Source: Nitrosopumilaceae archaeon
Lineage (GTDB): Archaea; Thermoproteota; Nitrososphaeria; Nitrososphaerales; Nitrosopumilaceae
DNA length: 64,000 nt
Assembly: GCA_965208905.1 (NCBI GenBank)
Contig: OZ242365.1
Coordinates: forward strand, 1,504,001-1,568,000
Direction: 5' to 3'
Shown here in pieces: positions 1-61,995 of the stretch. The position numbers and the translations under genes are program-made. Positions within the stretch are counted from its first letter, which is position 1, and every line of letters starts with the position of its first letter. The notes under the pieces are model-generated. The model was not told the origin of the DNA, ran no database searches, and was given only the letters and a program-made list of their open reading frames with translations.

Positions 1-1199
1 TAGTCGATCATTCTTTTTGCCATGTTCAGGGCACTCTTCTCACCGAACCGCCTTGTGGACACCACAAACTCGTGGGCGCACCGCCGGTCATACGGCACAT
101 CAAATATATCCCTTATGAGACCCAAAAGGTAGTTTGCATTCAGGAGGGCGGCCTCCGAGACATTCACAATGTCGGATCCCCACGATTTGATATACGCCAA
201 GGCCCTGAGCATGATTCCAAAGTTTCCATAGAACGAGTGGATCCTGCCGACGCTCTTATCGTAGTTATAGTCTAGATCAAACGTGGGGCCACCATCATGC
301 CTCACAATCCTCGGCACTGGCAGGTACTCCTCTAGGAATGATCTGACACCCAAGGCGCCGCCACCGGGCCCGCCGCCACCGTGCGGGGTGGAGAAGGTCT
401 TGTGCAGGTTCAAGTGCATCATGTCAAATCCCTGCTCCGCAGGCTTGCTGATTCCCAGCATCGCGTTCATGTTTGCCCCGTCGCAGTACAGAAGCGTTCC
501 GTGCTTCCTTGATAGTTCAGTTATCTCCTGAAGGTGCTCCTCGTAGAATCCCAGCGTGTTGGGGTTTGTGATCATCACCACAGCCACGTCGTCCCCTATG
601 GCCTTCCGGAACCCGTCCAAATCCATGTTACCGCGCTCATCGCTACGTACCGTTACGGTCTGGAACCGGCATGTGGCGGCAGTGGCGGGATTCGTTCCGT
701 GCGCCGAGTCCGGAATTATTATCCGGGTGCGCCTCTCGCCCATCTCTGCAAAGTATCTCTTGGCGATCATGACCCCCAGCAGCTCCCCCTGAGAGCCGGC
801 TGCAGGCTGCAGGCTGAATGCATCCATGCCGGTGATCTCCTTTAGGGCCTCCTGCAGATCCCACATGACCTCCAGCGCGCCCTGCGCGTGGGACGGTGGG
901 GCGTGAGGGTGCATGCCTGCGAATCCGGGGAGCCTGGCCATATCCTCGTTTACGCGCGGGTTGTACTTCATGGTACACGAGCCCAGTGGGTATATGCCGG
1001 TGTCTATTCCATAGTTTTTTCTGGAGAGCTCCGTATAGTGGCGGATCACCTGTATCTCGCTTACATCCGGCAGGGGCAAGTAGTCCCGTTCGGGAAACTG
1101 GTCTTTTATGCCATCTTCATCTGTGCGGATGTGTCCGGTGTTTGCTTGGTCGTAATCAAAGATAAGATTCTCAGGTGTGTCCTGGTCTTGCGCAATCAT
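1..1199 (-). CDS. gcvPB: Glycine dehydrogenase (decarboxylating) subunit 2, partial (runs off window start)
   Basis: Not in the ORF track. Read manually from ATG at 1199, which overlaps the gcvPA stop (ATGA): MIAQDQDTPENLIF...LPDVSEIQVIRHYTELSRKNYGIDTGIYPLGSCTMKYNP, and later HLNLHKTFSTPHGGGGPG (PLP-lysine motif). Confidence 0.93.
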   Translation of the reverse strand, partial: MIAQDQDTPENLIFDYDQANTGHIRTDEDGIKDQFPERDYLPLPDVSEIQVIRHYTELSRKNYGIDTGIYPLGSCTMKYNPRVNEDMARLPGFAGMHPHAPPSHAQGALEVMWDLQEALKEITGMDAFSLQPAAGSQGELLGVMIAKRYFAEMGERRTRIIIPDSAHGTNPATAATCRFQTVTVRSDERGNMDLDGFRKAIGDDVAVVMITNPNTLGFYEEHLQEITELSRKHGTLLYCDGANMNAMLGISKPAEQGFDMMHLNLHKTFSTPHGGGGPGGGALGVRSFLEEYLPVPRIVRHDGGPTFDLDYNYDKSVGRIHSFYGNFGIMLRALAYIKSWGSDIVNVSEAALLNANYLLGLIRDIFDVPYDRRCAHEFVVSTRRFGEKSALNMAKRMID

Positions 1200-2452
1200 T
1201 GCATGGATACACCCCTCACATACGTCTCCATGTCTGGTACGGTATTCTTTTCTGTGCAGCATACAAGCAGCCGGTGGTCGTCCACTGCGATTCCGCCCAG
1301 TATGCCGCACCGCTGTAGGCGTTCTAGTATGTCTGTTGCGGACCTTGGTGTCTCTACAAGAAACTCGTTGTAGAACGGACCCGGCGTTATGGTTCGGAAC
1401 CCCCTTGTGTGAAGCATCTGCTGCAGCCGGTGCGCCCGACGGTACGAGGTATGGGCAACCGACCGAAGGCCGGTCCTTCCCAGCAGGGCCAGATATATGG
1501 TTGCAGACAGCGCCAAGAGCGTCTGGTTTGTCGTTATGTTGCTGGTGGCGCGTTCCCGCCTGATGAACTGCTCTCTTGCCTGTAGCGTAAGGACAAATCC
1601 CCGCCTGCCGGACCCGTCTTGAGTAGCGCCCACTATCCTTCCGGGTAGTTTCTTGGTAAGCGTATTCCTGACTGCCATGAATCCCAGACACGGGCCTCCA
1701 AAGCTTTTGGGTATTCCGAACGACTGCCCCTCGCCCGTCACAATGTCCGCCCCTGCCTCTCCGGGGGGACGCATGATGGCCAGTGATGTGGGATCCGATA
1801 TGCAGCTTATGAAGAGAGATCCATTCCGGTGAGCCTTCTCTGCCATGTGTGTGGGATCCTTTATGGAACCATCAAAGGCAGGTACCTGTTGTATGACGCA
1901 TGCCACATCGTCGTTTATGGTATCTGAGATGAAGATGTCGGCTCCCTCACAGTATGTCCTGAGAACCTGAAGGTATGCTGGATTCAATCCCGCATCCACG
2001 AAAACGCCTCTTCTTTTTGTGTATGAGTGGGCCAAGAGTACGGCTTCTGCCAGGGCCGAGGCTCCGTCATACAGTGACGCGTTGGAGACGTCCATTCCGG
2101 TGAGCAGGCATATGTATGATTGGTATTCATATAGAGCCTGCAGCACCCCTTGACTTGCCTCTGCCTGATACGGGGTGTATGCGGTGAGAAATTCCCCCCT
2201 TAGAACTATGTGACTTATGGCAGAGGGGATGTAGTGGTCGTATGAGCCGCCCCCGGCAAAGCACTTGGTCTGTGTGTTCTTTGCTGCAAGCGACTCGATA
2301 TATGATACCACATCCATCTCGCTCATTGGTTCGCCGAGGTCCAGCCTTGCTGCCCGGGGAACCTGATCCGGTACAAGCTCATCAACCGTCCGGCAGTCTA
2401 TTGCGGCGAGCATCTTTGATATGTGCTCACCTGTGTGCGGAATATAGTTCAT
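1196..2452 (-). CDS. gcvPA: Glycine dehydrogenase (decarboxylating) subunit 1
   Basis: Motifs FLTAYTPYQAEASQG, NASLYDGASALAEA, LQAREQFIRRERATSNI. Confidence 0.96.
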   Translation of the reverse strand: MNYIPHTGEHISKMLAAIDCRTVDELVPDQVPRAARLDLGEPMSEMDVVSYIESLAAKNTQTKCFAGGGSYDHYIPSAISHIVLRGEFLTAYTPYQAEASQGVLQALYEYQSYICLLTGMDVSNASLYDGASALAEAVLLAHSYTKRRGVFVDAGLNPAYLQVLRTYCEGADIFISDTINDDVACVIQQVPAFDGSIKDPTHMAEKAHRNGSLFISCISDPTSLAIMRPPGEAGADIVTGEGQSFGIPKSFGGPCLGFMAVRNTLTKKLPGRIVGATQDGSGRRGFVLTLQAREQFIRRERATSNITTNQTLLALSATIYLALLGRTGLRSVAHTSYRRAHRLQQMLHTRGFRTITPGPFYNEFLVETPRSATDILERLQRCGILGGIAVDDHRLLVCCTEKNTVPDMETYVRGVSMQ

Positions 2453-2848
2453 TTATTTCTCAGCGTTCCCAACCGATTCGTCGTACTGATCCCGAGTGAG
2501 CAAAGATTCCAGCTGGGCCGGATTCTCCGGCGCCATCTTTACAATCCACCCGTCCTGATATGGTGACTTGTTGATCAGTTCGGGCTGTGATAGCAGGTTC
2601 TCGTTGACATGTGTAACCCGCCCATCCACCGGACTGTATACATCCGTTGATGTCTTTACGGAGTCTATTATTGCTATGGCATCATTATACCTGTAAGAGA
2701 CACCGACCTCGGGCAGTTCAACAGAGACCACATCTCCGAGCTGATCCTGTGCAAATTCCGTAATTCCCACGATTATGCCGTCGTCTGCTGTGTCCACCCA
2801 TTCGTGCTCCTTGGTGTATCTCCTAGCCAACAGGTCAGATTTGGACAT
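2453..2848 (-). CDS. gcvH: Glycine cleavage system H protein
   Basis: YTKEHEW, GITEFAQDQLGDV, lipoyl-lysine motif DSVKT, INKSPYQDGW. Confidence 0.96.
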   Translation of the reverse strand: MSKSDLLARRYTKEHEWVDTADDGIIVGITEFAQDQLGDVVSVELPEVGVSYRYNDAIAIIDSVKTSTDVYSPVDGRVTHVNENLLSQPELINKSPYQDGWIVKMAPENPAQLESLLTRDQYDESVGNAEK

Positions 2849-2889
2849 CTTCTTTAAAAAGCTATTCGCTCATATTCCGGGATTTATCC

Positions 2890-3600
2890 TTGTTACTGAC
2901 ATTTAAATACTAATTTTGTATCACATAGTATAAACAAACAACCAGCAAACGACTCCGAAAAGCCTGTTAAAGATCTGCCCCTAGCGAAGTTATTCAAGAT
3001 ATTTCCCGATGAAGAATCCGCCATGAAGTGGTTCGAAGCCAACATATGACCGGATGGCCAAGTATTTCCTCGGTGCGGATACAAGTATACCCACGTCAGC
3101 AAACATAAGGAGATGCTGTACTTCTGCGTCGAGTGCAAGAGGCACTTTAGTGTCAAAAATAGGCACTGTAATGGAGCACTCCAAAATAAGCTACCGGAGA
3201 TGGGCCGTGACCACACACCTGCTTGCAACGCGCCCCAAGGGAATACCCAGCGTACAACTAGGTCGTGATCTAGATATAAAGCAGAGATCTGCCTGGCTAC
3301 AACACAAGTTCAGGGAGTCGCGGAGCACCGTAGCGGGGCCGAACCTAATGTCCGGCCCCGTCTAGATGCATCTGAGAGGATGCGAGAAGAACAAACATAC
3401 AGACAAGAAGTGCAAAAATAAAAAGATTGCCGTTGTGGGCATCAAGGACCGAAAGACTGGAACCGTTAGGGCCATACCCGTGCCGGAGACCGCCGCGGCA
3501 CGCCTCTTGGCATTTATCGAGGCCAATGTAGACCCCAATTCCAAGAAATTCACCGACGAGAACCGGACATACAACGTTAAAAAAGACATAAAGCATATAC
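2890..3600 (+). pseudogene. IS1595-family transposase remnant
   Basis: FPDEESAMKWFEANI*PDG...C..CKRHFSVKIGTVMEHSKISYRRW...GIPSVQLGRDL; KIAVVGIKDRKTG...FTDE. Contains internal stops and frameshifts; boundaries approximate. Confidence 0.85.
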
Positions 3601-4643
3601 TAATGAGTTATCTACCTATGACGTATCGGAGTGTTTTGCGGGATATTTTTGTGAGAGAGTCTGCGCATTTCTTTTATGGTATCATGGTTAATACACTTTG
3701 GTAAGTAGTTTGACACATCAAAAAGGCGCTCAACCACTCGTGTCTGGCGGGGAAATTACATAGGTGTTTGACTGGCTGCTGGTCGCATAGCGGCCCGATG
3801 TGTCTTGGAACTATCACGAGGACGGAAACGACTGCCCGTATTACCGTTCTTCACAAATAGCCATGTCTTTAGGCCTGCCCGTCTTCCGCAACCAGTCCGC
3901 GACAGGCGATGAGGTGGTAATGTCTATCGATTTATTCTGAGTTTTCCATTTTTTTGGCGAGTACTATGCGCATAGAAAGGCGACGGCACTTTGCATGAAT
4001 TAATGATCTACGCTATAGTAATGAGAAACAGCCAGAACATACCGTCATCTGGCAAGTATCGGAAGCACTTGACCGAGGCGGTAGAAGCTGGCATGCAGTC
4101 CTCCTTCTAAACTACCAACCATGATAACCCAAAACATATTTTTACAGAACGTGTTTGTGTATGTCACTGAGATCACTCATCAGAATAGCTCAGGGATGCC
4201 ACCAGCCTGTCTCAACACCCTTCGGAAAGACTTGTTAAAACAATTTCCTAGTGCCGCCAGACACAAAAGTATGCTGGTAGTGTGGTGTTTTAAGGTAGGA
4301 GCATACAGAGTGTTGCAGTAGAAGGCAAAACAAGCAAGGCATCTATGTCAGACAGACAACAAAAAACTGCCTAAAAAGTATGGAAGACTATGCGCAACGA
4401 TAGGTGGACGAGGTGGGCAGAACATATGGAAAGTATTGAGAAGTTCATGCCGATCAGGCAGATGTCTGAACTAACCCACCCGAAGGCCAACAAGCCGCCT
4501 GATACCAGTATACGCGAGGAATCGTAAACGTGTTTAATAAAACACCATCGGATATAGTCTACAGTAGATTTTTGGAGTTAAGATGGGTAGACGGTTGTCC
4601 ACTGGACATCAGCTACTACCTTAGAGGAACAATGTGAGGAAAT

Positions 4644-4853
4644 ATGAAGTTGTCTCCACTAAAACCCGAGCATATACTAAATGCTATCGACGAGGCATTT
4701 GCTAACATTGAGCAACCATCAACCTTCAACACGGGAGAGCTCTCGGATTCCCTCATGTATACGGTCCTGATGGAGAAAGTTGTTGACCGGTTGGAACTAC
4801 AAAGCAAGCACAAGGTTGCACTCCTAAGCAAGATGGAAAAGCATAACATTTAG
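4644..4853 (+). CDS. Small hypothetical protein, possibly a remnant
   Basis: 69-aa ORF with protein-like composition; no recognisable motif. Confidence 0.3.
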   Translation: MKLSPLKPEHILNAIDEAFANIEQPSTFNTGELSDSLMYTVLMEKVVDRLELQSKHKVALLSKMEKHNI

Positions 4854-5374
4854 TTCCTGCTAGACAAACCACGAAGGCAGACAATCTGCGCATAAAGTAT
4901 CAACACTGATGTTGTTGCCAAACGATGGGAGAAGGCTGCAGCTACACCTAAGGAGAGAACAAACTGCGCCGAAATGGTCAGCAACATAGGATATGACACA
5001 TGAATAAGACTGGATCCAATCTGTCTCATCTACAGGTGACAAGAACATTATCAAGAGATCATCAACTACCTGTTTTCAAGATTGGAACCGAAAAGAATTA
5101 TTGGGTACGCCGAGAGGGTTATGAAAGACCATCAAGATACTAGGGATGCAAGCGTTGACATGTCCTGATCCAACCACTTCTGTGAGGACTCAAGCTGGAG
5201 TCGGAAGATTCAACTTGATCAGAGAAAACGAATCTACAAGTTTTTTATGATAATCTAACAGGAGGTACCCAATATCAAAAATTTCACTGTGTAAAGAGGC
5301 TGCATAATGTGGAGGGTTTTGGGCCTAGATTACAAACCCATGACATGCAATTGCTACAGTTCCGACTTTATGGG

Positions 5375-8565: not shown

Positions 8566-10094
8566 TAGCGGCGTACATAAGTTTCTGTACATTTTCTAGA
8601 AATAATTCATCCTCCAACACCATAAGAGTCATCGATGTGAAAACCATGTTGGGTTTTTACACTGCATTATGTTGATAGTACGTCTTTCTAAGATATGTGG
8701 CAAAAACATATTGTATAATATTACACGATCTTTATAGCGCGCCGATTGGAAAAGTCAAAAATTTATTTCCCGTACTTGTAGTATGGCAGATGCCAAATTA
8801 TTGCAACAGGTCCGTAGTTCCGAAAAGTCAGGATGTGCTGCACGCAGATTAGGCATGTTGATAGTACTACTCAATATGGGGAATATCTGCAGCAACAGCC
8901 ATCACATATTCCTGTGACAGGCGTACGGTGGCATTGTGGGATGGGAGGGTGCCTCAGAATATAGATGTATTTGGTTATATACGAAGTGCACTTATCGATA
9001 TGCCCCTGTCCAGGCGCCCAACAAAAATACCGCGAAAACTGCTTGCAAAGGCAGAAGCGTGGCGATTGAACAGTGCGTTTACCACGACGGAGCTCTGCAT
9101 TACATGTAAGAGATCTCAGGTGTAAGGCTAAGCCCATCACAGGCAAGACGTTATGCCAAAAAGTGGGGGTATTCGCGCAAAAAGACATCCCCCCGTGCAC
9201 GTGAACAAGGCCACCATACAGGATGTGGAAGGATGGAGAGAAAGTGTTTTCCATATGGTCGCATAATCTAGGTTATGCTATTGCAACTCAGGATGAGTCA
9301 AACTATGCAGGATGCCAACTGTCGGGAAAATACTGGGCAAGGGTTGGATTGCGTATATTTATGTCATACGGTCAGGGGGCCATCAGAAGTTTTCTGTATT
9401 CTGTACCATGATATCAGACGGTAGATACTTCTTCAGCCACCCCAAGACGGCGGACACGACAAGTTTCCTGACACATATAGAGGAGGCGTACAAAATGGTG
9501 GGAAAGATGGTGCTGTTTCTGGACCGGGAGCCCCAGCATACATCTGCCGCGACCAAGGGGTTCTTTGAGAGTCACGATATCATTGTACAGTGGTATCCGG
9601 TGGGACATTCATATCGTAACCCTGTAGAGAAGGTCTGGAGCGTGTTGAAACACGCATTTCTACATTCCGTCCGCTATGCCAATACTGCCACACATTTAAC
9701 ATCAGTGTACAGGTTCATCTGGAACTATAAATGTGACTATTGTTTTTTCAAATACTGGAAACAAGGCCATCAGAGGGAATTATACGACCATTTGTACGGT
9801 CAGGCGGCCCGTTAGACCCGGCAATAGAAAAGTTGCGTGTAAACAGCGCCAAGAAACGCCGCCGTTACAAAAAACGGTAAAATATACAAAACCACGGCTG
9901 TTGCCACATGTCCTATACGGCCTTGAAATGCCGTATATGTAGTCATATAGAAACATGGTAGTGGCGCATAAAAAGTGCAGTACTGGCCACAATCGTATGA
10001 TGTTTTATCAAAATCAGGCGCACAGTCCTGCCAACCTGACCTGTGGGCATACCTAGGCGATTTTCAATTGTGCAGGAACTTTTGCGTGCCGCTA
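8566..10094 (+). mobile_element. IS630-family element, transposase disrupted
   Basis: Imperfect TIRs TAGCGGCGTACATAAGTTTCTGTACA / TGTGCAGGAACTTTTGCGTGCCGCTA flanked by TA. DDE pieces ATQDES, FLDREPQH, RNPVEKVW lie in split frames. Confidence 0.85.
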
Positions 10095-10311
10095 TATTGC
10101 CCCAGTCTGATGATTTATAGATCAAGTTCAAACAAGCTACTGCATCTGTAGGTGACAAAATTCGGGAATTTCATATGAAACCAATCACCAAGAGTGGCAG
10201 ATCCTGGCAGTTTTGCACCAGTCCAGCCCATCGGAAGCAGATTAGCCCGGTATGGTGGACGCGGCGGTCATCGGCACAGATACGACGTGCATTCGAATAC
10301 AAGCGTGGTCG

Positions 10312-20157: not shown

Positions 20158-21591
20158 ATGTCAAAAAAAGAGCACATCGGCATAACAGAGTCCAAGAGTG
20201 GCAACTTTAGCGAGTGGTATACGCAGATAGTACTAAAGGCAAGACTAGCAGACTATGCCCCCGTAAAGGGCATGATCGTACTGCGGCCGGACGGCTATGC
20301 CATATGGGAGACGCTCAGAGCTGCATTAGACAAAAAGTTTGCACAAGAAGGTGTCAGTAATGCGTTCCTGCCAGTTCTCATACCAGAGTCTCTACTGGTT
20401 CGTGAAAAGGCACACTTTGAAGGATTCAACCCCGAGGTATATTGGGTCACGCATTCAGGAGATACGCCCATCGGCGACAGATTGGCTCTGCGGCCCACTT
20501 CTGAGACGGTACTGTATCACATGTACTCCAAATGGGTCAAGTCCTGGCGCGATCTGCCACTAAAACTCAACTTTTGGAATACAGCTTTACGCGCAGAGAT
20601 AAAGTCCACCAAGCCATTCCTGAGAACCTCGGAGTTCCTATGGCAGGAGGGGCACACTGTACATGAGAGTCGTCAAGAGGCCGAATCTCAGGTGGAAAAG
20701 ATGCTAGACATCTACAGAGAAGTGACAGAACAGCATCTAGCAATACCAGTACAGTATGGTAAAAAGAGCTCCAAAGAGCAGTTTGTTGGTGGCGAATATA
20801 CGCTTACAATAGAGTCCATAATGCCTGATGGTCGGGCACTACAGATGGGCACCAGTCACATGTTGGGTCAAAACTTTGCCAAACCATTCTCTGTAAAGTA
20901 TGCAGACAGTAACAATATAGAACACTACGCCTGGCAGACATCGTGGGGAGTCTCATGGAGGCTGTTGGGCGCAATGATAATGGTACACGGTGATGATCAT
21001 GGTCTGGTGCTGCCGCCTAAAATGGCGCACATACAGGTAGTAATAGTACCCATACTATTTGCAGATACCGATACTGTAATGAAGGCTGTACAGTCACTTG
21101 CCGAATCATTGTCAGGTATGGGTGTGCGTATACACGTAGATGCCCGAGAGAACGTCTCACCGGGATTCAAGTTCAACGATTGGGAGTTGAGGGGGGTGCC
21201 TCTTCGTGTCGAGATGGGTCCTAGAGATATAAAGGCAGGCACAATGGTCGTGGCACGTCGGGACACTTTATCAAAGGATACGATACAGATTGATGGTGCG
21301 CCAGATATGATACAGCAGATGTTACGCACAATGCAGGATGACATGTTAGAGAAGGCCAAAGAGCAGGCATCAAAACTCACCGGTGAGGCATCCGACTATA
21401 TGGCCCTCAAGGAGGGCATACGAGCAGGGGGGTTCTGGTGGGCCGACTGGTGCGGCAAAGAGTTATGCGAGGATACAATAAAAGAGGAGACTGGAGCCGA
21501 CATACGTCTGTTATCACCCAAGACCGGAGGTACATGTATAGTCTGTCAGAGTGGCAATAGTACCCGGGCATTGTTTGCACGGGGATACTGA
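20158..21591 (+). CDS. proS: Proline--tRNA ligase (archaeal/eukaryotic type)
   Basis: FSEWY, LRPTSET, PFLRTSEFLWQEGHT, QMGTSH, C-terminal FARGY; start chosen at MSKKEH. Confidence 0.97.
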   Translation: MSKKEHIGITESKSGNFSEWYTQIVLKARLADYAPVKGMIVLRPDGYAIWETLRAALDKKFAQEGVSNAFLPVLIPESLLVREKAHFEGFNPEVYWVTHSGDTPIGDRLALRPTSETVLYHMYSKWVKSWRDLPLKLNFWNTALRAEIKSTKPFLRTSEFLWQEGHTVHESRQEAESQVEKMLDIYREVTEQHLAIPVQYGKKSSKEQFVGGEYTLTIESIMPDGRALQMGTSHMLGQNFAKPFSVKYADSNNIEHYAWQTSWGVSWRLLGAMIMVHGDDHGLVLPPKMAHIQVVIVPILFADTDTVMKAVQSLAESLSGMGVRIHVDARENVSPGFKFNDWELRGVPLRVEMGPRDIKAGTMVVARRDTLSKDTIQIDGAPDMIQQMLRTMQDDMLEKAKEQASKLTGEASDYMALKEGIRAGGFWWADWCGKELCEDTIKEETGADIRLLSPKTGGTCIVCQSGNSTRALFARGY

Positions 21592-21631
21592 TTATATACA
21601 GCCCATACGGACGTGTAACTTCAAACTTGAT

Positions 21632-21650
21632 TAGAGTTTATGCGTAATTG
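21632..21650. repeat. IS5-type terminal inverted repeat TAGAGTTTATGCGTAATTG
   Basis: Identical to the left end of the IS5-family element at 60408-60426. Confidence 0.85.
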
Positions 21651-22237
21651 CACAACTTGGCAGCATTGGGTGGTCCCGGCCCGTTCTGGCCGGCACCGCC
21701 CACCCCGGTACAGCCCATCGGCTCACCGCCGACGGAATTCTGGCGTTCCGGTTTGTGCGCCCCCGACAGATGCCATTCGGCATCTGCACTACGGCCCTCT
21801 AACAGCCGCATGATGTTAAGGAGTGTAATTCTCCGACCATGCGTGAGTGTACGGTCGGCGGCCGCCTTTTTCAGCAGCCGTATTATGTGATATAGTGTGG
21901 GGTCTGGTGACCCAAGTGGTGTATGACACATTAGGGCCAATATGGTACGAAATAGTATGTTGGCACCCGCGTTGGCATCCCGTTCCCTAATTGTACGACA
22001 TGTATAGCACCACATGTCGCGGGTCGGTATTTTACCGGTATTTGTCCCGATATGTTTTAGACTGCCGCCACACTTGAGACATTTCGCGGATGTATTTCGC
22101 GGTTCGATGCCTATATGCGGCAGACCCTCGGACTCGGCTGCATTTTTGAGTGCGTTCTGTCTTTGGCCTGTATTCAGTGTGGATTTTGTTTTGCCACGGA
22201 TAAATGGTGATATTGTATAGTTTTTGGTGTACAGTCG
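21638..22237 (-). pseudogene. tnpB: 3' part of a TnpB-like RNA-guided nuclease gene, 5' end removed at the IS3 junction
   Basis: IEPRNTSAKCLKCG...WCYTC...RERDANAGANIL (Zn finger plus RuvC-III). The stop codon lies inside the TIR at 21632-21650. Confidence 0.8.
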
Positions 22238-23484
22238 TGGTGGGGACCCCGCTAGAATGAGAACACTCACGTTCATACAGCTTAAAGTCGTAATGGGAGG
22301 GATGATGCCATGGTAAGAACAAAGTTTACTCCAGACCAAAAGATCCAGATCGTTTTGGAATCAATCAAGACCAATATTGGCACGGCCGAGCTGTGCCGCA
22401 AGCACAACGTTCATCCCCAAACGTTTCAAGCCTGGCGGCAAAAGTTCATGGACGCAGGCAAGTCCGGACTGACCCATCACGGAAAGAAGGATCCGATAAA
22501 GGCCATCAAAAAGGAGAACGGCGACCTAAAGCGAATCATAGGGGATCTGACAATCGCAAACGACGCTTTAAAAAAAACCTTGGAGGCAAGCAACGATTGA
22601 ACGCGGTAAAAATCATGCAGGAACAACATTTGAGCCTGCGCAAGTCGCTAGGGTATGCGGGCGTATCCAGGCGCCAATGGTACTACAAACCCAAGCCCAG
22701 AGACATGGGATTGAATCCGGATATATTGAGCACTGTGCTAGATACGAGCAGAAAGAGGCCCACGTACGGCACACGGCGCATGGCGGCCCAGATAACGCGC
22801 GATACGGGAATTGTGGTGAACCGCAAGCAGATACAGCGGATATATCGCAAAATGGGCTACATCCAGCCACAAAATACCAAAAACGACATCATTCGAGCGG
22901 GTCAAAAGCTCTTCAAACCCAAAGCCCCACACCAGTTGTGGGAGACGGACATCACATACATCTGGTGCGGTATAGACGGCTGGTGCTACTGCTTCAACGT
23001 AATTGACTGCTTTACGCGCAAGTGGATCGCCTACGCGTTTGATGTCAATGCCACACGAGACATTGCAATCACCTCAATCACCAACGCGGTTGCCGCAGAG
23101 AAACCTGACTGCTCACAATTACGATTGCGTACGGACAACGGCAACCAGTATACGAGCCGCGACTTTAGACATGCGGTTCAGGCCCTTGGCATCGGCAAAC
23201 ATGAATTCATCTACAAGAATACGCCGGAGCAGAACGGACATGTCGAATCATTTCACAAGACGCTGAAAAAGGAATACATCTGGCCGCACGAGTTTGCGAA
23301 CTATCAGGAGGCAGAGACGATCATTGCAAAGGCCTTTGTAGATTACAACACCGAGAGGATTCATTCCTCTATCGGATACATGACACCAGTAGAATTTGCC
23401 GAACAGTTGGAGATGACAAATAAATGATGGAAGATGTATGTAAAATCATGCCGAAAACAGTAACATTCTATGGGGTCCACTCCA
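22238..23484 (+). mobile_element. IS3-family element, apparently intact (OrfA 22310-22600; OrfB to 23427 via -1 frameshift)
   Basis: TG...CA ends with imperfect IRs (TGGTGGGGACCCCGCTAGAATG / CATTCTATGGGGTCCACTCCA); A-run at ~22570; integrase-core motifs WETDITY, RTDNG, NGHVESF. Confidence 0.93.
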
Positions 23485-26720: not shown

Positions 26721-27514
26721 TAAAATAAGCACTACAAAGCATGACATGCGTGGGCAGCTGGCAAGCTGTTACGAATTTCAAGAGGCATGCGTCTTGTGAT
26801 ATGTCTCTAAATTCAGATATGATAACATGCATGATAACATAAAAAAAAATAAAAAATGAATGATTAAAGGAATGGTCCAATGTTTGCTGTCAGACTTATC
26901 ATAATGGTTATGAATATGGCACCCCAAACACGGCCAGCAACCATATAGATATTACTAAATGACAGAACCGATAAATTATAGACACATCCTAAAACTAGAC
27001 GTCTTTGAGGGGTATGCCAGCCTGCATTTCCACATATGTTGGTGAACTGCCATTCAGATCGAGATGTCCTTTGTTGGTAAAGCAAACAAGCCCAACCTTT
27101 GGACAGTTGTTTTTCAGTTGTTAGAGTGAGCTCCGAACCTTTGTTTGATCAGACTGGTTATGTCAATATCAAATATTTCATCCAACACCCAAAATTAACA
27201 TCAACTAAAATATCAACAATTTAGAGACCTCATATAAGCATCCCAACTCAAGTTAACGACATTTATCGTTAATATTCCAAAACCACTGTAACCCATTAAC
27301 GTCTGTTTACACATAGTCTGTCATGAAGGAAGAGTTACAGTCTAAACTCCGCGCCAAACATGACCAACTTCGTCAGGCCGAGGCCAAGTTGGTTGTATTA
27401 CGGGACGAGGCCGCCAAGTCGATTGGTGCCGTTGAGGCGCAGGTACGTAAAGTCGAAGTAACATACACAGAAACAAGCGACATTGAAGACGAAATCGTGC
27501 ATTCTTCGTGACAG

Positions 27515-28050
27515 GTGGGTGAAATATTGTGCATTCGAAGGGCAAATATGACCCCAAAACCCCTACCTTTTTGGGTCAAAAGTACCCCATGTAATTACGC
27601 CTACATATGGCGCATATGTCGTGTTTGGTCTAAAAGTACCATACAAATAATGCCCAAGTTATACAGGGCAGTCTGAAAAACCAAAAGTCACACAAACATC
27701 ATCTTTTAACCCTTACTGGGGCGACAACATACACCATGTGGGTGAAATATTGTGCATTCGAAGGGCAAATATGACCCCAAAACCCCTACCTTTTTGGGTC
27801 AAAAGTACACCATGCAATTACGCCTACATATGGCGCATATGTCGTGTTTGGTCTAAAAGTACCATACAAATAATGCCCAAGTTATACAGGGCAGTCTGAA
27901 AAACCAAAAGTCACACAAACATCATCTTTTAACCCTTACTGGGGCGACAACATACACCATGTGGGTGAAATATTGTGCATTCGAAGGGCAAATGTGACCC
28001 CTAAACCCCTACCTTTTTGGGTCAAAAGTACACCATGCAATTACGCCTAC
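27515..28050. repeat. 223-bp tandem repeat, about 2.4 near-identical copies
   Basis: Unit start GTGGGTGAAATATTGTGCATTCGAAGGGC at 27515, 27738 and 27961. Confidence 0.95.
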
Positions 28051-28370
28051 AACATGTTGCACGTACACCAAAAAGTGCCATACACGACACATGTACCATT
28101 TCACGCCTAAAAGCTAAACCCCCCATATACAATGTGCTATTTACGCCTAAAGCCAGATGTAGTAAATTTATCGATTTTGAGGGGGGTTTAGTGTTTACGC
28201 ATGATATAGGTAACCAATACTCAAAGCATGAAGATGTCATACCAAGATACATGGTCAAAATCTATTTCACGCCTAAAAGCTAAACCCCCACTCTTGTACG
28301 TATAGAAAGTATGGCTATATCACACACTAGTGTATATGATGTGAAATTATGCGGATTCCGAGTAAACATA

Positions 28371-43677: not shown

Positions 43678-43754
43678 TCTAGTTGGCTTGATGATTGCCA
43701 TGCATAACTAGAATGGTTACAGACTAATTGAATTAGATTAAATTGTTTCATGTA

Positions 43755-43990
43755 TAGCGGCACACAAAAGTTCCTGCACAATTGAAAATCGCCCATACAT
43801 GCACACAGTTCAGGTTGGCAGGACTATGTGCGCCTGATTTTGATAAAACATCATACAATTGTGGTCAATACTGCACCTTTTATACGCCACTGCCACATTT
43901 TCATATGGTCACATGTCTGGTATTTCACGGCTGTACAGGATGTGCGGTAACAGTTGTGATTTTGTATATTCTATCGTTTTTTTTGGAGTG
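43755..43990 (-). mobile_element. Right-end fragment of an IS630 element related to 8566-10094
   Basis: TAGCGGCACACAAAAGTTCCTGCACAATTGAAAATCGCC... is the diverged reverse complement of ~9860-10094. Confidence 0.8.
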
Positions 43991-45633: not shown

Positions 45634-45692
45634 TAGTGACAGACATAACCCCGAACGTTAATATATCTAACGTGTAAGTGTCTCCAAGTATA

Positions 45693-46798
45693 TAGTGAGG
45701 TGCATAAATAACCCGACACTAATTTTACGCCGGTAGAATTTTGTCCAAATTTCTGAACAGAATGTTGCGCGGCTTAAACTTTATTTCCAGTGAATCGTAT
45801 ATCGGCATGATTTTTCTTCGGAAATATCTTTTGGCCGGCCGCCTGAAAGTTCGCCATATCCTTGCCGTTGAGCCATAACCATTCGGCCGGATTTAAAAAC
45901 GGCGAGTACGGAGGCAAGAATATCAGTTTGACGAAATTATTATTCTTTTTCAAGTATCGCTTTACGCGGTTAGAGTTGTGATATGCGGCATTATCCAATA
46001 TTACGGCAACCTTGCCGAACCGTTTTTTCGTCTTGTTCAAATACCGGATAAAGGACCTGTCGTTGGCCTTGCTAGCGGCCATATAGCATGTCTGCCCGTC
46101 CAGCGTGATGCCGCCGTATATGGTCTGGCGCTGGTTGCCGAGTGGCGTTTGTACCGGTATGGCATCACCGCGTGTATAGACTGCGCCGCTGCCAAACATG
46201 CTCAAATTTTGGTGGCTTTCATCCGATATTATAGGCGTGAATCCATCTTTTTTTCAGTATTTTTATCTCATTTGTAGTATCTTTCTGCCAGATTTCGAGA
46301 TCTTTCCTTGGTGGAATTCGGTCGGATATCCGGGGAGTCTTCCGTATAGTAAAGCCAAGAGACCTAAGGATGCGGCGCGCTTGCGATTCGCTGTATTTTA
46401 TGCCGGTCTTTTTCTCAGCCAGTTTAACAAATCCGTAGGCGGTGAATTGCTTGGCACCGTTAATTATATTCTCTAATGTGTGGCGCGGTACGAAAGATGG
46501 ACGGCCAGGCCTCGCACCATCGGCGAGGCCATCCAGGCCTTTATGGTCGTAGACATTAAGCCAATCACATATGGTGCTACGATCGACACCAAGCACATCC
46601 GCTGCCGCAGAGATTGTATATCCTTTAATGCGCACCATATTTACGGCTACGATACGGGCGTATTGCGTTGTACTCTTAGTCTGTTTTAGAGCAGCCTTTA
46701 TTTTTTGGGCATCAGTTTGGTTACTCATATAATTAGTTAGTGATTTTGATCATTTATGTATTTCTAATAGAGTGTAGGATTATTTATGCTCCCAACTA
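45693..46798 (-). mobile_element. IS630-family element, full length but frameshifted
   Basis: TIRs TAGTGAGGTGCATAAATAACCCGACACT / AGTGTAGGATTATTTATGCTCCCAACTA with TA flanks; HTH ORF plus SDES, ILDNAAYH, LPPYSPFLNPAE. Confidence 0.92.
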
Positions 46799-46904: not shown

Positions 46905-48449
46905 TTACATAAAGAATCTGTAGTGATCCTGTAATACTTTATCTTTTTCCAATTCAGATAAAATCTTACCTACTTCTTCAGCAAATCTAATTGTAATTGG
47001 AAGAGCGGTTGAAAATGCAGTGGTGTTCCAATTTAGTTTTGTTAACCCAAGAATCTCTCTTGCGACGTCTTCATTCTGAGAGTTCCCTATATGTAATATG
47101 CGTAATGCGTTAGGAATCTTATGGCCTGCATACGAACGTATTCTTGGTGAAAACCCAGATGAATAAAGCAAAAATTCATTATTTGTTATTTCTACCAATG
47201 TTCCACGAAGAACAGGATAATTACCTAACCGAATAAAGTTAATCCATCCATGACTTGGACTTATTGTAACAAAGTCTTTTTCAGGAATCTTCTGTCCGTA
47301 TATTGCCTTGTTAAACCCAGTTTGTTCGTCTTCAGAAAATATAGATGACTTGTGTACTACAACTCGAGTTGGATTTCGTCCAGATGAAGTATGGTACTTT
47401 TTCAGAGCACATTCCATGAGAGTTTGTGCTTGGTTTTTTTTCATGTATGGTTGTTTTGTTTTTTCATCAATATCAACTTCGGTTCCTCGAAGCACGAGTC
47501 CCTCTCCATTATGTGTAAAGACTTGTGCCATTGAGATCTGTATATCGCGATTTGGACTTAGTTTGTCTCTAAAGAATGAAATTCCTATATAGCATGTATC
47601 TTGTCGTAGTTTTGCAAGTCTCCAAGGTTTTCCATTTGCTTTGTAGTATAATGCAGTACTGAAGTTCCAGCTAAACGTAGCAGGATCTTCTTTTGTGTTA
47701 TTTTTGAAGTTTTCATACTTTAGAACATGTTTTAATGTACTTTCTCTGATCAACTGGATTGGAATTCCATACTTCATTGCTTTGCCTTTAAGTGAGTTTC
47801 TAAAATCAAATCCCTTCTCTTTTATCTCTACATCGTTGACAGGAGCAAATCCCCATTGTGTTAGAAAGCTTTGGTGGTTTGCTTTTAGGTCTGCAGTTTT
47901 TAGCTCTAATGGTGAAGGCTTAGCAGTCTTTGCACCATATGTGTGCTCTCCAATTCCACAGTACAATTCTGCAGGTTTTGGAAGTGTACAGACAATTACG
48001 TTTGGTAGGTCATCACCTTCAGCAATTTTTTCTATTTTTTCGAGATATAGATTTACTGCATAACCAATCCTTTCATTAGGATTCTCAATATTTTCTATTT
48101 TGTGGAGTTCCAAATCATCCGACAACGACGCATTCCAATTTTTTGAGGTTTTTATAGTACACTTAAATTTACTTTTATTGTTCATTCCGGGATAATCAGC
48201 AAAAAGCCATCTGTTTAACTTGTAACTAGGAACAGGTTGTTCTATGAACCTTAAAATATCTTTAACAAGACGTGTACATTCTTTGTTTCCAATTATACCA
48301 ACTCTAACACTTTCCAACGGTGAGGATTCTTCCTGATGAAAAAATGGACCAAATTGTCCGAGGCCAATTCTAGGATCCTTGTCTTCGTTCTGGTTTCCAA
48401 AGATCAGGTCAGGTTCTGGAATATATTTTGCAACAAACTTAGGAACCAA
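46905..48449 (-). CDS. ago: Short prokaryotic Argonaute (MID-PIWI, slicer tetrad absent)
   Basis: EPDLIFG..DPRIGL..FGP; FRNSLK...IPIQLIRESTL; ALYYKANGKPW; CYIGISF; AQVF; VVVHKS; VLRGT; ILGLTKLNWN; PITIRFA; C-terminal YRFFM. No N or PAZ domain. Confidence 0.93.
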   Translation of the reverse strand: MVPKFVAKYIPEPDLIFGNQNEDKDPRIGLGQFGPFFHQEESSPLESVRVGIIGNKECTRLVKDILRFIEQPVPSYKLNRWLFADYPGMNNKSKFKCTIKTSKNWNASLSDDLELHKIENIENPNERIGYAVNLYLEKIEKIAEGDDLPNVIVCTLPKPAELYCGIGEHTYGAKTAKPSPLELKTADLKANHQSFLTQWGFAPVNDVEIKEKGFDFRNSLKGKAMKYGIPIQLIRESTLKHVLKYENFKNNTKEDPATFSWNFSTALYYKANGKPWRLAKLRQDTCYIGISFFRDKLSPNRDIQISMAQVFTHNGEGLVLRGTEVDIDEKTKQPYMKKNQAQTLMECALKKYHTSSGRNPTRVVVHKSSIFSEDEQTGFNKAIYGQKIPEKDFVTISPSHGWINFIRLGNYPVLRGTLVEITNNEFLLYSSGFSPRIRSYAGHKIPNALRILHIGNSQNEDVAREILGLTKLNWNTTAFSTALPITIRFAEEVGKILSELEKDKVLQDHYRFFM

Positions 48450-49970: not shown

Positions 49971-50586
49971 AAGATCTCGAAATCTGGCAGAAAGATGCTA
50001 AAAATGAGATAGAAACACTAGAAAAAGACGGATTCACGCCTATAATGTCGGACGAAAGCCACCAAAATTTGAGCATGTTTGGCAGCGGCGCAGTCTATAC
50101 ACGCGGTGATGCCATACCGGTACAAACGCCACTTTGCAACCAGCGCCAGACCATATACGGCTGCATCACGCTGGACGGGCAGACATGCTATATGGCCGCT
50201 AGCAAGGCCAACGACAGGTCCTTTATCAGGTATTTGAATAAGACAAAAAAACGGTTCGGTAAGGTTGCCGTAATACTGGATAATGCTGCATATCACAACT
50301 CTAGCCGCATAAAGCGATACTTGAAAAAGAATAGTGATTTTGTCAAACTGTTATTCTTGCCGCCGTACTCGCCGTTTTTGAATCCGGCCGAATGGCTGTG
50401 GCTCAACGGCAAGACAAGGATACGGCGAACTTTCAGGCAGCCGGCCAAAAGATATTTCCGAAGAAAAATCATGCCGATATACGATTCACTGGAAATAAAG
50501 TTTAAGCCGCGCAACATTCTGTTCAGAAATTTGGACAAAATTCTACCGACGTAAAACTGGTGTCGGGTTATTTATGCACCTGACTA
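49971..50586 (+). mobile_element. 5'-truncated IS630 copy, inverted relative to 45693-46798
   Basis: Near-identical DDE half (50045-50554) and right TIR GTGTCGGGTTATTTATGCACCTGACTA followed by TA. Confidence 0.92.
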
Positions 50587-50738
50587 TAATTTGGGCCTAA
50601 TGCTTAATGGTTTATTTTGTGTAACATGTAATTTTGTTTTTATATGTCTGATGGCATACTGTTGCATATGGAAAACCATACGACGCGTATACTGCATCAA
50701 TGCATTGTGTTTTGGGACATCAAACGTGAGGGATTGAT

Positions 50739-53720: not shown

Positions 53721-53844
53721 GCATAAACTCCATTATTCATAATTGCAGAAAAAGGTGGTTTTAACGCCTGATAGATAGGCCGATCAAGCGTATATGAACA
53801 ATGTCTAGTTTTTATATCTAAATGTATTAAACGAGGTTAGGTCT

Positions 53845-54501: not shown

Positions 54502-55382
54502 GGTCATATGGTCTAAGTCTTGCACCACTGGGAGTTCGATATTTTTTTGGCCATCCAGATCCACTTTTTGATGGTTCTCTAGAATTTGGATTGAGGTTGG
54601 AGCTGTCCGTCTTTTTCATGACATAATAACGTGCACACATCTTTTAAAGTTTAGCGGACATGATGCTATTTCCGAACCGTTTAACATCAAATGACCCCCA
54701 CATCCTATGTTATGTAAGTCACATCTACAAAAGATCAGCAACAAAACCACACTATCACACTGCAACCGGGATGTGAGGTTCGTTTTGAAAAGTATTTGCC
54801 TGCGGGACATACCCCATAAAATCAATGTTAATTATGCATAAACTCTAATATCCGTAATTCTTACTTTCATGTCAAATCCAGGTTCAAATATTCTGATTTC
54901 AATTAATTCCACATATTGTCTAATGTTCAGTGCATCAGAGGCAAATCCAGAAAAAACCGTGCCATCATAAGCGTACGATTTACCGAAAGGCTCAAGGGTT
55001 CGCCCATATCCATCAAAACCACAACTTCATTACGCCTGCTCCGACAAGCTTGTCGTAATTGAATAATTAGTATTTATCGTGGCGGCGCGAGGCACTTCCA
55101 GAAAAAACATCGGGGTCAAATCCTGTCGAGATTTCTCCTTAAATAATAACCATGTCACATTTCAAGATCGTTTGTATGTCGAACCTAAGAATACCGTATT
55201 TTTCTAGGCCTCCTGTGGGGTCTGACCGTTTTTCTGTGGGATGCCCTTCGGGTGCCGTTTCTGGTCAAAATTACCATACCGGTGCATATAACTGCAGCAA
55301 ATTTTGTCTGTTTTCTGGCTCTAGTTTGAAAATGAGTGCATTATTTTGGATAGTCTTATGTGCATCAGGGCAGGTTCCCGGA

Positions 55383-57162: not shown

Positions 57163-58636
57163 CTAGAGTTTATGCGTAATCAGAGTTAGTAGAGTTTATG
57201 CGTAATCAAACCACTTTCAAGCGATCTGAAACACATAACACGCTGTTGGTGTTTCCACCATCCAGAGGTATACATTGAGCCTTCCGCGTACCGGGAAGGG
57301 TTGCTCCAACCACGGGGGGAGTCATACCCGTGTCAAGATGTATCTGCCCTCTCGAGGCCAGTCTGACCTCGCGCTGGAGTTTCTGCACGGCGCGAATCCG
57401 CGCAGACCACCAGACGATTGCAAAAGTGTATAGTATATTGAATGCTGCGTTTACATCCGCGTGTATTGTTTTACGACTGTTCATGACAGGTTAATTTCCG
57501 GCCTTCGCGCAATGTGTTATATCTGCAGCACATAAAGCACATCTTTGAGGTGTTGCGGGGGTTGACCTCTGCATATTCGACGTTGTGTCGTGTGGAGCCA
57601 TACGCCATGTAATTCCGTGCCTCGCCGCACTTTGACTGTCGCATCTTTTTGTTCTTCTCTGTCTGTCCCGGGCCGGCGCGCGTCAGGGTATCAAGCCCCA
57701 TCCCCTCAAAGATTATCTTGTCACACTGCTCGAATAGTTTTTTGGCGAACTTTCTGAGTCTGTCGCGCTGACGATTCTTCATCTTTCTGTATATGGCGTT
57801 TAACTGTTTTTTGAGATTGACATATTTCCGCGAACCTGCTGTGCAGCGCGACATGCGCTGGTGCAGCCCGCGTATCTTGTGTAGTGTGATCTTTTCGCGT
57901 AATGACAATACATTTGCGGTTCCATCGGACTTGGCAACTACCATGGTATGGTGCCCACCCATGTCTACTCCGGCGAACACACCGGTACATACGCGGTCCG
58001 GTATATGCTCACGAACTGTCACATGTAGCTCGAACTGCCGTTCCTTATCAGAGTGGTTTGTAACGTCTACTATCTTGTACGACTGGGAGTCTTTGGGCAG
58101 CTCGCCTTTCTGCAAGTAGAATGGAACACTGCAACACGGAAAGTAGACCACATTGCCGGTGGACTTTTTTCCCAGCGGCCTGGCGCTATACAATGGATAT
58201 GTATGGTTGCCATACGGTACAACCCTCTTGTGTTGTACGTCTGGTGTCTTGCACTTGCACACATCTTCAGGTGAGCCGCACGATGTACAGCTGCCCTGCA
58301 TCTTTCTGCCGACCTGTATCGCCCCGTACGCGAATGCTTGTGGTATAGTAGATACAAGCGTTACGACCTTTGCGCAGTCAATGAACGTCGCCCCAATGTT
58401 TCTGGCCTGCAGACCGGCGTTCAACCATACATGAGACTCGGACTCCATCGAATCAAAGTATGCAGTCAGCCGGGTGCTAGTCTTGAGACGATACGTTAGT
58501 GTGCGGGTCACATGCTTGGTTCCCTGATACTTTGGTATAATGTACTGTACAGTCTATACAATATACATGATCCGACATATATATACAATTTTAAAAATTA
58601 TAATAGTCAGATTTTTCGATTACGCATAACCTCTAG
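57163..58636 (-). mobile_element. Non-autonomous element bounded by IS5-type TIRs carrying only a tnpB-like gene
   Basis: CTAGAGTTTATGCGTAATC (57163; core repeated at 57190) and GATTACGCATAACCTCTAG (58618-58636). Confidence 0.85.
57206..58511 (-). pseudogene. tnpB: TnpB-like RNA-guided nuclease with one frameshift near 57485
   Basis: RuvC-I GVDMG, RuvC-II IIFEGM, VNPRNTSKMCFMC; RuvC-III HADVNAAFNIL lies in the next frame. Confidence 0.88.
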
Positions 58637-58639
58637 TGT

Positions 58640-60406: not shown

Positions 60407-61995
60407 CTAGAGTTTATGCGTAATTGACATGCATATTGTATAGATGGTTATGATCAATTTACACTATTTGGTAAATATTCTAAATATGGGACAAAATTGG
60501 ATGAATTTTGGCATTATGCTATGTAAAACAGATCTCCAGTCAAACTTTTAGCGATACGTGTTTTCGACAGTGCCGACGGCCCGGTTGATATTCCCAAAAG
60601 TTGTGTGCAGTCTCGTGCATGTAAATCATGGTCCGCTGTATAAGCAGGTGGTACCAAGTACCGCCATACGTCATGATGATGCCCTCATACGGAGTATCTT
60701 GTCCTTCCAGATATGGTAGGTACCATCCCTGTGCATCTTGCGCATGTCATACATATGGCATTAAAGTCGTCATTGAACTCTTGTGTTGTACCATCATATC
60801 TGCCGGATATGCGCGTCCAGTTTTTAACATGCGCAAAGACATTCTCAACTTTTATTCTTCTTTTAGAATGGGTCCTGTTGTATGCCCGTTTAGTCTTTGG
60901 GAGTTCCTTATTTTTTGGCTTTATGTATGGAACGCGCTCATCTACACCGGCAAAGTATTTTTTCAAATCCTGATGTATACTATCCCCAACAACCTGTATA
61001 CGTTCCTCTCTTGGGATTTCATTATGCTGCATTCTGTCCAACCATTTACCAAAATTAGGCATATTCTCCCTGAATACTGTAATATCATGACAGCTTCCCT
61101 CCCTAGAATTGGTTATTATACACAACGTAACTCTTCTTGTTGGTTAGGGCGGTCGTGCTGATGGCAAACATCTTGCCCTTGCCCGAATACTATTTCTTTC
61201 GCTCGGTACTATTTTGGGGACGGGTTGTCTCGACCAGTGTGCCGTCCGGTATAATCTCGCCACCCTGACGCCCGGGCAGTATCTCTTTTAATTCTTCAAT
61301 GGTTTTGGTAGATTCTATTAATTTTGTAATGTTGTGCGATGTCACCAGCAGTACATCATCATCATGTGTAGCCACAAACTTGAGATAGCGTAATTTGATC
61401 TATTCTGAACATTTCACCCAGTACAAACTGTGGCATGTTGAGGGCCCGCCGCATGAGCGACATCAAAAATATATGTCGTATGTGTAGTAGACATTGATTT
61501 CCAGCATCAGACTTTCTACTTTTATCATCCCTGAAATGAGGCACATCAGGACTATTCCGTATAATTTTATCGAACAGGGCAAGAGCCTCCTTAAACTCAC
61601 CCCTACGAAGCCGTGTAAAACGGTACATTATTTCATCATTGCCGATTATTCTATTCCATCATCAATACCATATCAGGAGGCAGGTCAGATGTGTGCCGCT
61701 GTTTGCCAGTATCGGTAATCCAGAATTTGTTATCCCGCTTGATAAGTTCATTTAATTCTGTTATCTGCCTAGTATTTTCTGCTAGTTCCTTATCCTTCTT
61801 TGCTAGTTCCACATTCTTCTCTACCAATTCCTTATCCTTTTTTGCCAGGAGCGTCCATAACTGCCTGTCATCAAGTGATTGCATGATTTCTATCCTTGAA
61901 ATTATATTTAACAGTACAAATTAGAAAATTTAACTAATGGTCAATAAAATTATAGTAAGCGGTTTTTAAGATCATCAATTATGCATAAACTCTAG
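60407..61995 (-). mobile_element. IS5-family (DDE_Tnp_4/ISL2-like) element, transposase fragmented
   Basis: TIRs CTAGAGTTTATGCGTAATTGA / TCAATTATGCATAAACTCTAG; fragments IIPDGTLVETTRP, SCHDI, VGDS, YNRTHSKRRIKVENVFAHVKNW. Confidence 0.88.

Follow-up and report, generated by a model that had tools for sequence, protein, structure and literature searches.

Two TnpB lineages ending in one terminal inverted repeat: probable non-autonomous transposons with IS5-like ends in a Nitrosopumilaceae archaeon

Why should a tnpB gene stop inside a terminal inverted repeat (TIR), and why should two dissimilar tnpB genes do so, in the same orientation, within a single stretch of archaeal DNA? The question is raised by a 64,000-nucleotide stretch of a Nitrosopumilaceae genome, here called the window, in which the 3′ half of a tnpB reads into a repeat that also ends a second, different TnpB 35 kb away. 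The first-pass annotation had argued from this arrangement for a family of TIR-TnpB elements and against a chance nested insertion. We traced both genes through the host genome (G000, one contig of 2,214,775 bp, estimated to be 99.6% complete), where tblastn finds about 50 TnpB places, and through related genomes. The locus itself comprises the following features.
21633..22237, minus strand: 3′ part (element positions 875-1477) of a TnpB-only TIR element, family A, encoding TnpB residues 267-465
21633..21648, minus strand: right-end TIR AGAGTTTATGCGTAAT, 16 bp, within which tnpB has its last three codons and its stop (21638-21640)
21630..21632, no strand: 3-bp flank ATT (AAT in the TnpB sense) at the position of a target-site duplication (TSD)

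The minus-strand open reading frame runs from 22339 to 21638, and from 22237 downwards it is the C-terminal half of a TnpB. It contains a Cas12f1-like_TNB zinc-finger domain (Pfam PF07282, E 1.1e-08) and retains the RuvC-III motif RERDANAGANIL, followed by a tail of ~110 residues, which bears out its first description as a divergent tnpB 3′ half with a zinc finger and a long C-terminal extension. The protein ends in ...NAAKLCNYA*, its final four codons, AAT TAC GCA TAA, being the reverse complement of window 21638-21649, TTATGCGTAATT. The NYA* codons are therefore TIR sequence, as had been noticed, with the stop and last three codons falling in 21633-21648. BLAST against the genome places the fragment (genome 1525632-1526237) at 92.6% identity over 606 bp to a full copy, A1; the stretch first picked out, 21632-22237, is exactly the BLAST match span of that full-length copy, element positions 875-1477. 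By tblastn its protein is 91% identical to family A TnpB, residues 268-465.

The fragment stops where another insertion sequence begins.
22238..23484, plus strand: IS3-family insertion sequence truncating the TnpB element, with orfA at 22310-22600 and the orfB frame at 22393-23427 (Pfam HTH_Tnp_1, rve/rve_3)
This 1247-bp insertion sequence adjoins element position 875 of the window copy and is present in the genome in 13 copies at no less than 99.7% identity, the window copy included. The missing 5′ part (element positions 4-880) lies in the opposite orientation at genome 1787775-1788651, where it adjoins an inverted IS3 copy (genome 1788648-1789897). The fragment and its displaced 5′ half, each next to IS3, would be explained by IS3 insertion into the family A element at position ~875-880, followed by recombination between inverted IS3 copies that would have inverted ~262 kb (genome ~1527485-1788647) and separated the element halves. 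The outer flanks of the split copy are AAT and, at the detached left end, AAG, with two of three bases equal (genome 1525632 and 1787772). The window copy is a dead element fragment. Separately, no insertion sequence of this genome seems to have been active more recently than this IS3 family.

The suggestion that BLAST might uncover full-length copies carrying the opposite TIR proved correct: three of family A and two of a second family, B, have the repeat inverted at the other end and a 3-bp TSD. The family A copies are 1477 bp long and 90-91% identical to one another (genome 63119-64595, 187534-189010 and 1028505-1029981), and each of these copies, A1-A3, has an unbroken 465-aa TnpB whose NYA-stop lies 6 bp before the last element base. 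BLAST also finds one old copy (69% identity) and several fragments. A 336-bp mini-element at genome 2020377-2020712 consists of the left 144 bp and the right 191 bp, which hold the RNA module described below, without tnpB; the same mini-element recurs as a contig joint in DNA run X4. Family B includes the other TnpB of the window, the one first noted.
57191..58634, minus strand: TnpB-only TIR element of family B, with AGT flanks at 57188-57190 and 58635-58637

Family B is 1446 bp long, with two full copies and a solo right end in the genome. The second full copy is 100% identical and lies in different surroundings at genome 1570174-1571619, with AGT on both sides. Its TnpB (57206-58511, minus strand) is split between two frames, 57471-58511 and 57206-57484, encoding 346 aa and then 92 aa with HADVNAAFNI, and the TGA that opens TGATTACGCATAA is its stop codon. 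Such copying of a frame-split tnpB would be anticipated were TnpB dispensable for movement. The pairing of two dissimilar TnpBs in one orientation to a single TIR, the second 35 kb away and also ending in the repeat, thus stands, but an alignment does not unite them in one close clade: A and B TnpB share 24% identity over 207 residues. The nearest kin of family B are instead a 12-copy IS605-like family of the same genome, 55-60% identical, with hairpin or palindromic ends and without the TIR. TnpB genes of two lineages between the same TIRs fit two captures. When family B-type TIR elements were sought in related genomes, G005 held only IS605-like relatives ~60% identical to the family B protein, and G002, G007, G008 and G023 held no match to it at E ≤1e-80.

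Fixed-length duplications are a mark of DDE-type transposition. Taking the element as AGAG...CTCT and comparing three bases on either side, we read the intact TnpB elements of this genome as follows.
A1: flanks AAT/AAT
A2: flanks ACT/ACT
A3: flanks AAC/AAC
B1: flanks AGT/AGT
B2: flanks AGT/AGT
All five thus have matching 3-bp TSDs. Among 24 family A loci examined, both ends are present in 19, and these flanks match in 16, although two of the 16 (L025 and L037) share flanks and are probably one site; the remaining three differ. In the related genomes alone both ends are present in 15 family A elements, of which 13 have matching flanks. The mismatched flanks in this genome are those of the family C element described below (C1, ACT vs AGT), the mini-element (ATA vs AGA), the 69% copy and the split window copy, which are old or rearranged copies.

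The repeat itself is well represented. The 17-mer TAGAGTTTATGCGTAAT, at 21632-21648 in the fragment, recurs exactly at 57164, 57190 and 60408 on the plus strand, and with one or two mismatches at 53716, 54831, 58619 and 61978 on the minus strand. Its 12-mer core, allowing one mismatch, occurs seven times in the window against 0.63 expected, a count reached in none of 100 shuffles. In the 2.21-Mb genome the 17-mer with up to two mismatches occurs 30 times, 15 per strand, while the reversed control pattern gives 0 and 1. This common 17-mer is not a chance word. Families A and B, and a third, C, all start with AGAG(T/G)TTATGC(G/A)TAAT and have its reverse complement at the other end. Three of the window matches stand alone.
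57165..57180, plus strand: solo TIR copy, 26 bp beyond the right end of the family B element
54831..54846, minus strand: solo TIR relic with one mismatch, a pattern match
53716-53732, minus strand: weaker solo TIR relic with two mismatches, a pattern match
The copy at 57165 suggests that family B inserted into an older element, at its end; BLAST finds no repeated element in the stretches beside the solo TIRs at 54831 and 57165.

Several other structures were seen in the window. Between the solo TIR relics at 54831 and 57165, which face outwards, sits a minus-strand pair at 55383-56947, an AbiEii toxin gene (PF08843, E 2.2e-26) and, upstream of it, a gene weakly matching AbiEi (E 0.006). A 223-bp unit is repeated in three tandem copies, the third partial, at 27512-28051 (95-99% identical). 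An inverted repeat of ~600 bp (45691-46304 and 49971-50588, 89-97% complementary) encloses ~3.7 kb with two long minus-strand open reading frames, 46905-48449 and 48439-49932, and another of ~230 bp (9869-10096 and 43753-43982, 81-89% complementary) has arms 33.7 kb apart.

The family A TnpB has 49 relatives at 45-88% identity in a large protein collection, and 19 aligned near-full-length homologs keep the tail ...GRNGPGPPNAAKLCxYA. Among genomes of 185,579 species, one per species, six records contain the family, at 27 loci in all; four of the records bear the title Nitrosopumilaceae and two Thaumarchaeota archaeon. Family A is present in five of nine same-genus genomes and in no others among the 40 relatives searched. 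Full-length homologs with no TIR at their 3′ end would speak against the element family, but the TIR is there in this genome and in G001, G006 and G009, where homologs at 53-63% protein identity likewise end within it. The repeat differs between genomes: G001 and G006 use the variant AGAGATTATGC(A/G)(C/T)AGAC, and G009 a third.

The window also contains a transposase element with the same ends.
60409..61993, minus strand: family C, IS5-like DDE_Tnp_4 insertion sequence with the common TIR at both ends (Pfam PF13359, E 3e-10)
Family C is the only PF13359 match in the genome, and tblastn with an intact 395-aa relative shows its transposase gene to be decayed, with four or more pieces lying in different frames. 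That relative comes from G023, whose insertion sequence combines an intact DDE_Tnp_4 transposase with a TIR of the G000 type (TAGAGTTTATGCGTAATCA); this element is interrupted by an unrelated insertion sequence (L022 1121-2869) with 68-bp inverted repeats and a 454-aa open reading frame. G001 and G006 have 2038-bp DDE_Tnp_4 insertion sequences bounded by those genomes' own TIR variant, those of G001 sharing the variant of the TnpB elements, AGAGATTATGCATAGAC, and including a 578-aa frame in L054. Their TSDs are AAT/AAT (L054) and TCT/TCT (L055). The transposases of the relatives score 74.3, 78.8 and 74.6 bits with PF13359 (cut-off 24.8), and 76 and 51 bits against the NCBIfam IS5 equivalogs, below the cut-off of 140. 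Genome by genome the same variant bounds both kinds of element, so that the TIRs of TnpB elements and of DDE insertion sequences vary in step. This co-variation in sequence is the strongest argument that it is the DDE transposase that recognises the TnpB elements, and the TIR shared in each relative suggests that these are TIR/TSD elements moved by a DDE enzyme and not IS605-type.

An ordinary IS200/IS605 origin must be weighed here, in which the elements would be tnpB-only, of the IS1341 type, moved as single-stranded DNA by a Y1 TnpA, with the likeness of the TIRs accidental. Such TnpB-only elements are common, the genome has the 12 IS1341-type copies with hairpin ends related to family B, and the left flank of our elements has a conserved base pattern, like IS605 targets. 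IS200/IS605 elements have neither TIRs nor duplications, according to a recent review (PMC13565253), whereas the elements here have 16-bp TIRs and the 3-bp duplications of the five local and 13 of 15 related elements contradict the IS1341 reading. A Y1 transposase (PF01797) gives no match in the 99.6%-complete genome, in a search whose controls matched in six of 14 genomes, and neither does a serine TnpA/recombinase (PF00239; controls matched in 12 of 14). Together with DDE insertion sequences that carry the same ends, this leaves the IS1341 reading so improbable that we give it hardly any credence.

Transposase and TnpB also occur in one element. Two composites, L056 positions 367-3525 (G006) and L058 positions 1231-4875 (G009), contain both DDE and TnpB parts within a single duplication, ATT and ATA respectively, and consist of a DDE insertion sequence lacking 140 bp at its far end joined to a TnpB element lacking 142 bp at its left end. 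The DDE gene is in two frames near residue 168 in L056 and in L057, a DDE-carrying element without a TnpB match, and near residue 225 in L058, and is continuous in L054 of G001; the two-frame genes may reflect decay or a programmed frameshift. These composites resemble fusions, and could be taken to favour chance nesting, that is, repeated insertion of TnpB elements into copies or relics of the DDE insertion sequences that own the TIRs. Nesting does happen, as seen in family B lying 26 bp inside a solo TIR and in the unrelated insertion sequence within the G023 element. Repeated chance events would not, however, be expected to give junctions that are identical across copies with the stop codon in the TIR in every one, nor three ~90%-identical A copies and two identical B copies at different sites with their own duplications. 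The TnpB elements have no second, internal pair of ends, and the arrangement is kept in the 53-63%-identical homologs of three other genomes. Nesting is accordingly a very unlikely origin. Full copies, inverted TIRs, their own TSDs and TIR ends in three related genomes uphold the original argument for an element family.

The overlap of tnpB and TIR takes on further meaning at the RNA level.
21633..21812, minus strand: conserved structured RNA region, presumed ωRNA scaffold, overlapping the last ~58 tnpB codons and the TIR
Within family A, conservation is higher over the final ~190 nt than elsewhere. RNAalifold analysis of 16 copies from four genomes gives a fold of 54 pairs with 97.6% of cells paired, in which 17 pairs show compensatory change, compared with 6.1 ± 1.5 in 500 shuffles (none of which reached 17) and 3-7 with slid partners. 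In the terminal hairpin UUGUGC pairs with the TIR bases GCAUAA, and the G for A of the G009 TIR is matched by C for U in its partner, columns 185/208 being UA in nine and CG in six of the 16 sequences; the change in the six is probably one event. In the single-sequence fold of family B, too, TIR bases are paired with a stretch lying upstream (z -2.4). On this covariation the conserved ~180-nt 3′ fold is presumably the ωRNA. In the window no Rfam match attains its gathering score; over 21500-22300 a single hit has E ≤1, to Giardia U2 on the plus strand, opposite in strand to the presumed ωRNA, at 20.5 bits against a gathering score of 100, and was taken as chance. In three sponge metatranscriptome runs contigs 90-95% alike cover parts of the family A coding region (L024 ~1603-2870), and may be DNA; all of these contigs leave the final ~110 nt at the right end uncovered.

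The protein retains the features of a nuclease. The RuvC residues D181, E262 and D354 (D-E-D) are invariant in 20 aligned family A proteins, as are C320, C323, C344 and C347 of a CxxC...CxxC zinc finger between RuvC-II and RuvC-III. PF07282 scores 35.6-35.8 bits (cut-off 26.3), and NCBIfam guided_TnpB just 40.9 bits (cut-off 100). The AlphaFold2 model is of moderate quality, with a mean pLDDT of 61 and values below 50 for residues 414-465; its top Foldseek matches are Cas12f (E 5e-11) and the ISDra2 TnpB structures 8exa (1.2e-06) and 8h1j (2.9e-06). Between pairs of copies 85-100 of 355 core codons differ, with 49-56 synonymous and 36-44 non-synonymous changes, a pattern that points to purifying selection on TnpB, and family A TnpB is probably an active nuclease, judging from these residues, substitutions and the model. 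Only 7-10 of 60 tail codons change. As the tail is predicted to be disordered (414-465), lies over the RNA region and changes less than the core, its conservation likely reflects the RNA.

These data bear on whether TnpB matters to the element at all. The elements might be true TIR/TSD transposons in which TnpB is a decaying or exapted passenger and the 3′ region serves, for example, transposase binding or as a regulatory RNA. Such a view would accommodate the family B TnpB, frame-split yet copied, and the mini-element, which keeps its 144-bp left and 191-bp right parts with no TnpB, and a DDE break needs no extra nuclease, as the review states (PMC13565253). It sits poorly with family A, where TnpB is intact in all three full local copies and most relatives with catalytic and zinc residues invariant, where synonymous core changes equal or exceed non-synonymous ones as under purifying selection, and where the 3′ fold covaries as RNA. 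We regard a mere passenger as improbable.

Our preferred reading, which we hold with good confidence, is that this locus belongs to a non-autonomous transposon made up of tnpB and an overlapping ωRNA gene between IS5-like TIRs, the window copy having been inactivated by IS3. A DDE transposase would bind the TIRs and mobilise the TnpB elements in trans, by a cut-and-paste mechanism. An ωRNA would arise by transcription across the right end, with the ~180-nt fold that finishes in the TIR as its scaffold and the duplicated 3 bp plus flank as its guide. TnpB would then cut the emptied site, and recombination with the sister copy would restore the element, by analogy with IS605-type TnpB, for which cutting of the emptied site and recombinational restoration have been shown. 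Since the genome's only cognate DDE gene is broken, the TnpB elements are probably stranded, and immobile in this genome at present. With no intact cognate transposase in this genome, the 100% identity of B1 and B2 is hard to account for. The frame-split TnpB of family B, the two-frame DDE genes of L056, L057 and L058 and the mismatched flanks also weigh against this reading. The break left by DDE cut-and-paste already invites recombinational repair, as stated in the review (PMC13565253), so that the benefit of TnpB here is unclear.

A more ambitious extension of this reading is that, on at least two independent occasions in Nitrosopumilaceae, a DDE transposon that duplicates its target has acquired restorative homing guided by RNA. 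In it the TIR would double as transposase site and ωRNA 3′ hairpin, the guide would begin with the duplicated 3 bp, and one or more bases bordering the element on the left would act as the TAM. The left flank is indeed biased. Counting without one orthologous duplicate and the composites, and among copies that are kin, C precedes the left duplication (-1, TnpB sense) at 21 of 23 left ends but at 14 of 42 right-end mirror positions (Fisher 5.5e-06). By genome the left-end figure is 7/7 here, 9/10 in G001/G006 and 5/6 in G009, and here AC is found at all seven left ends while C stands at -1 in one of 12 right ends (P 1.6e-04). At the ends of DDE-only elements C occupies -1 in 10 of 15, a difference from the left ends that is not significant (P 0.09). 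Given that figure and the kinship of the copies, the bias, which resembles a TAM beside the prospective guide target (duplicate plus right flank) and may also be a target preference of the transposase, is held as a lead only, and the homing proposal is tentative and rather doubtful. If true, it would reveal a way for the guide and TAM of a TnpB to be reconciled with target-site duplication.

Cas12 descends from TnpB, itself a compact genome editor. To our knowledge, the natural role of TnpB is understood only in IS605/IS607 elements, whose excision leaves no scar. The present case bears on how TnpB serves cut-and-paste DDE transposons, which is also the situation of the eukaryotic Fanzors. The genus offers a natural series of autonomous DDE insertion sequences, two-gene composites and TnpB-only passengers of two lineages, to which this genome adds the 336-bp mini-element (ends and RNA module only) and TIR-less IS605-like cousins, the host of the TnpB passenger being an ammonia-oxidising archaeon. 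For annotation, tnpB genes of this sort should not be classed as IS200/IS605.

ISL2 and IS1031 are groups of the IS5 family. DDE partners of TnpB given in the 2026 review are ISL2, IS630 and IS1031, prokaryotic TnpB-DDE associations being described there as rare (PMC13565253). In the section of Altae-Tran 2023 on transposase associations, DDE-transposase-associated TnpBs form six branches (DDE-1 to DDE-6), all with inverted terminal repeats. Most of the tnpB genes end no more than 250 bp from the edge of the transposon, solo TnpBs whose ends resemble those of elements with a transposase are interpreted as mobilised in trans, and of these branches only the IS630-linked one is detailed (PMC10691335). 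As DDE-associated TnpBs with inverted repeats are published, the kind, first described in 2023, is already known and not new. Our literature search found no paper holding both TnpB and Nitrosopumilaceae and, for TnpB with IS5/Harbinger, only the review (PMC13565253). Within the literature so covered we did not find one TIR serving two lineages, co-variation of TIR and partner, TIR bases in an RNA hairpin or the flank bias.

The elements agree with the DDE-associated TnpBs of Altae-Tran 2023 in the inverted repeats around tnpB, in a 3′ end within 250 bp of the element end (here inside the TIR) and in a DDE element with matching ends, in trans (family C, G023, G001) or in cis (L056, L058). They differ from the IS630-linked branch in their IS5-like (DDE_Tnp_4) partner, 3-bp TSDs and Nitrosopumilaceae host, the likeness being one of ends and partner, and here two TnpB lineages at 24% identity have a common TIR in one genome. 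With the IS1341 group of IS200/IS605 they share a lone tnpB and a structured RNA running across its 3′ end to the right end, but that group lacks TIRs and duplications and is moved by a Y1 TnpA, whereas TIRs and 3-bp duplications are present here and a Y1 gene is not. Fanzor1 is likewise a TnpB-family nuclease in DDE transposons of the TIR and TSD type, according to the review (PMC13565253), and Fanzor structures are also listed, weakly, by the fold search; Fanzor1 is alike in element type and differs in its eukaryotic or viral hosts and much larger proteins. Finally, the short TIRs, 3-bp duplication and deletion derivatives such as the 336-bp mini-element recall the IS5 and PIF-Harbinger-like DDE_Tnp_4 elements and their MITEs, except that the non-autonomous derivatives described here carry the gene for an RNA-guided nuclease together with its RNA.
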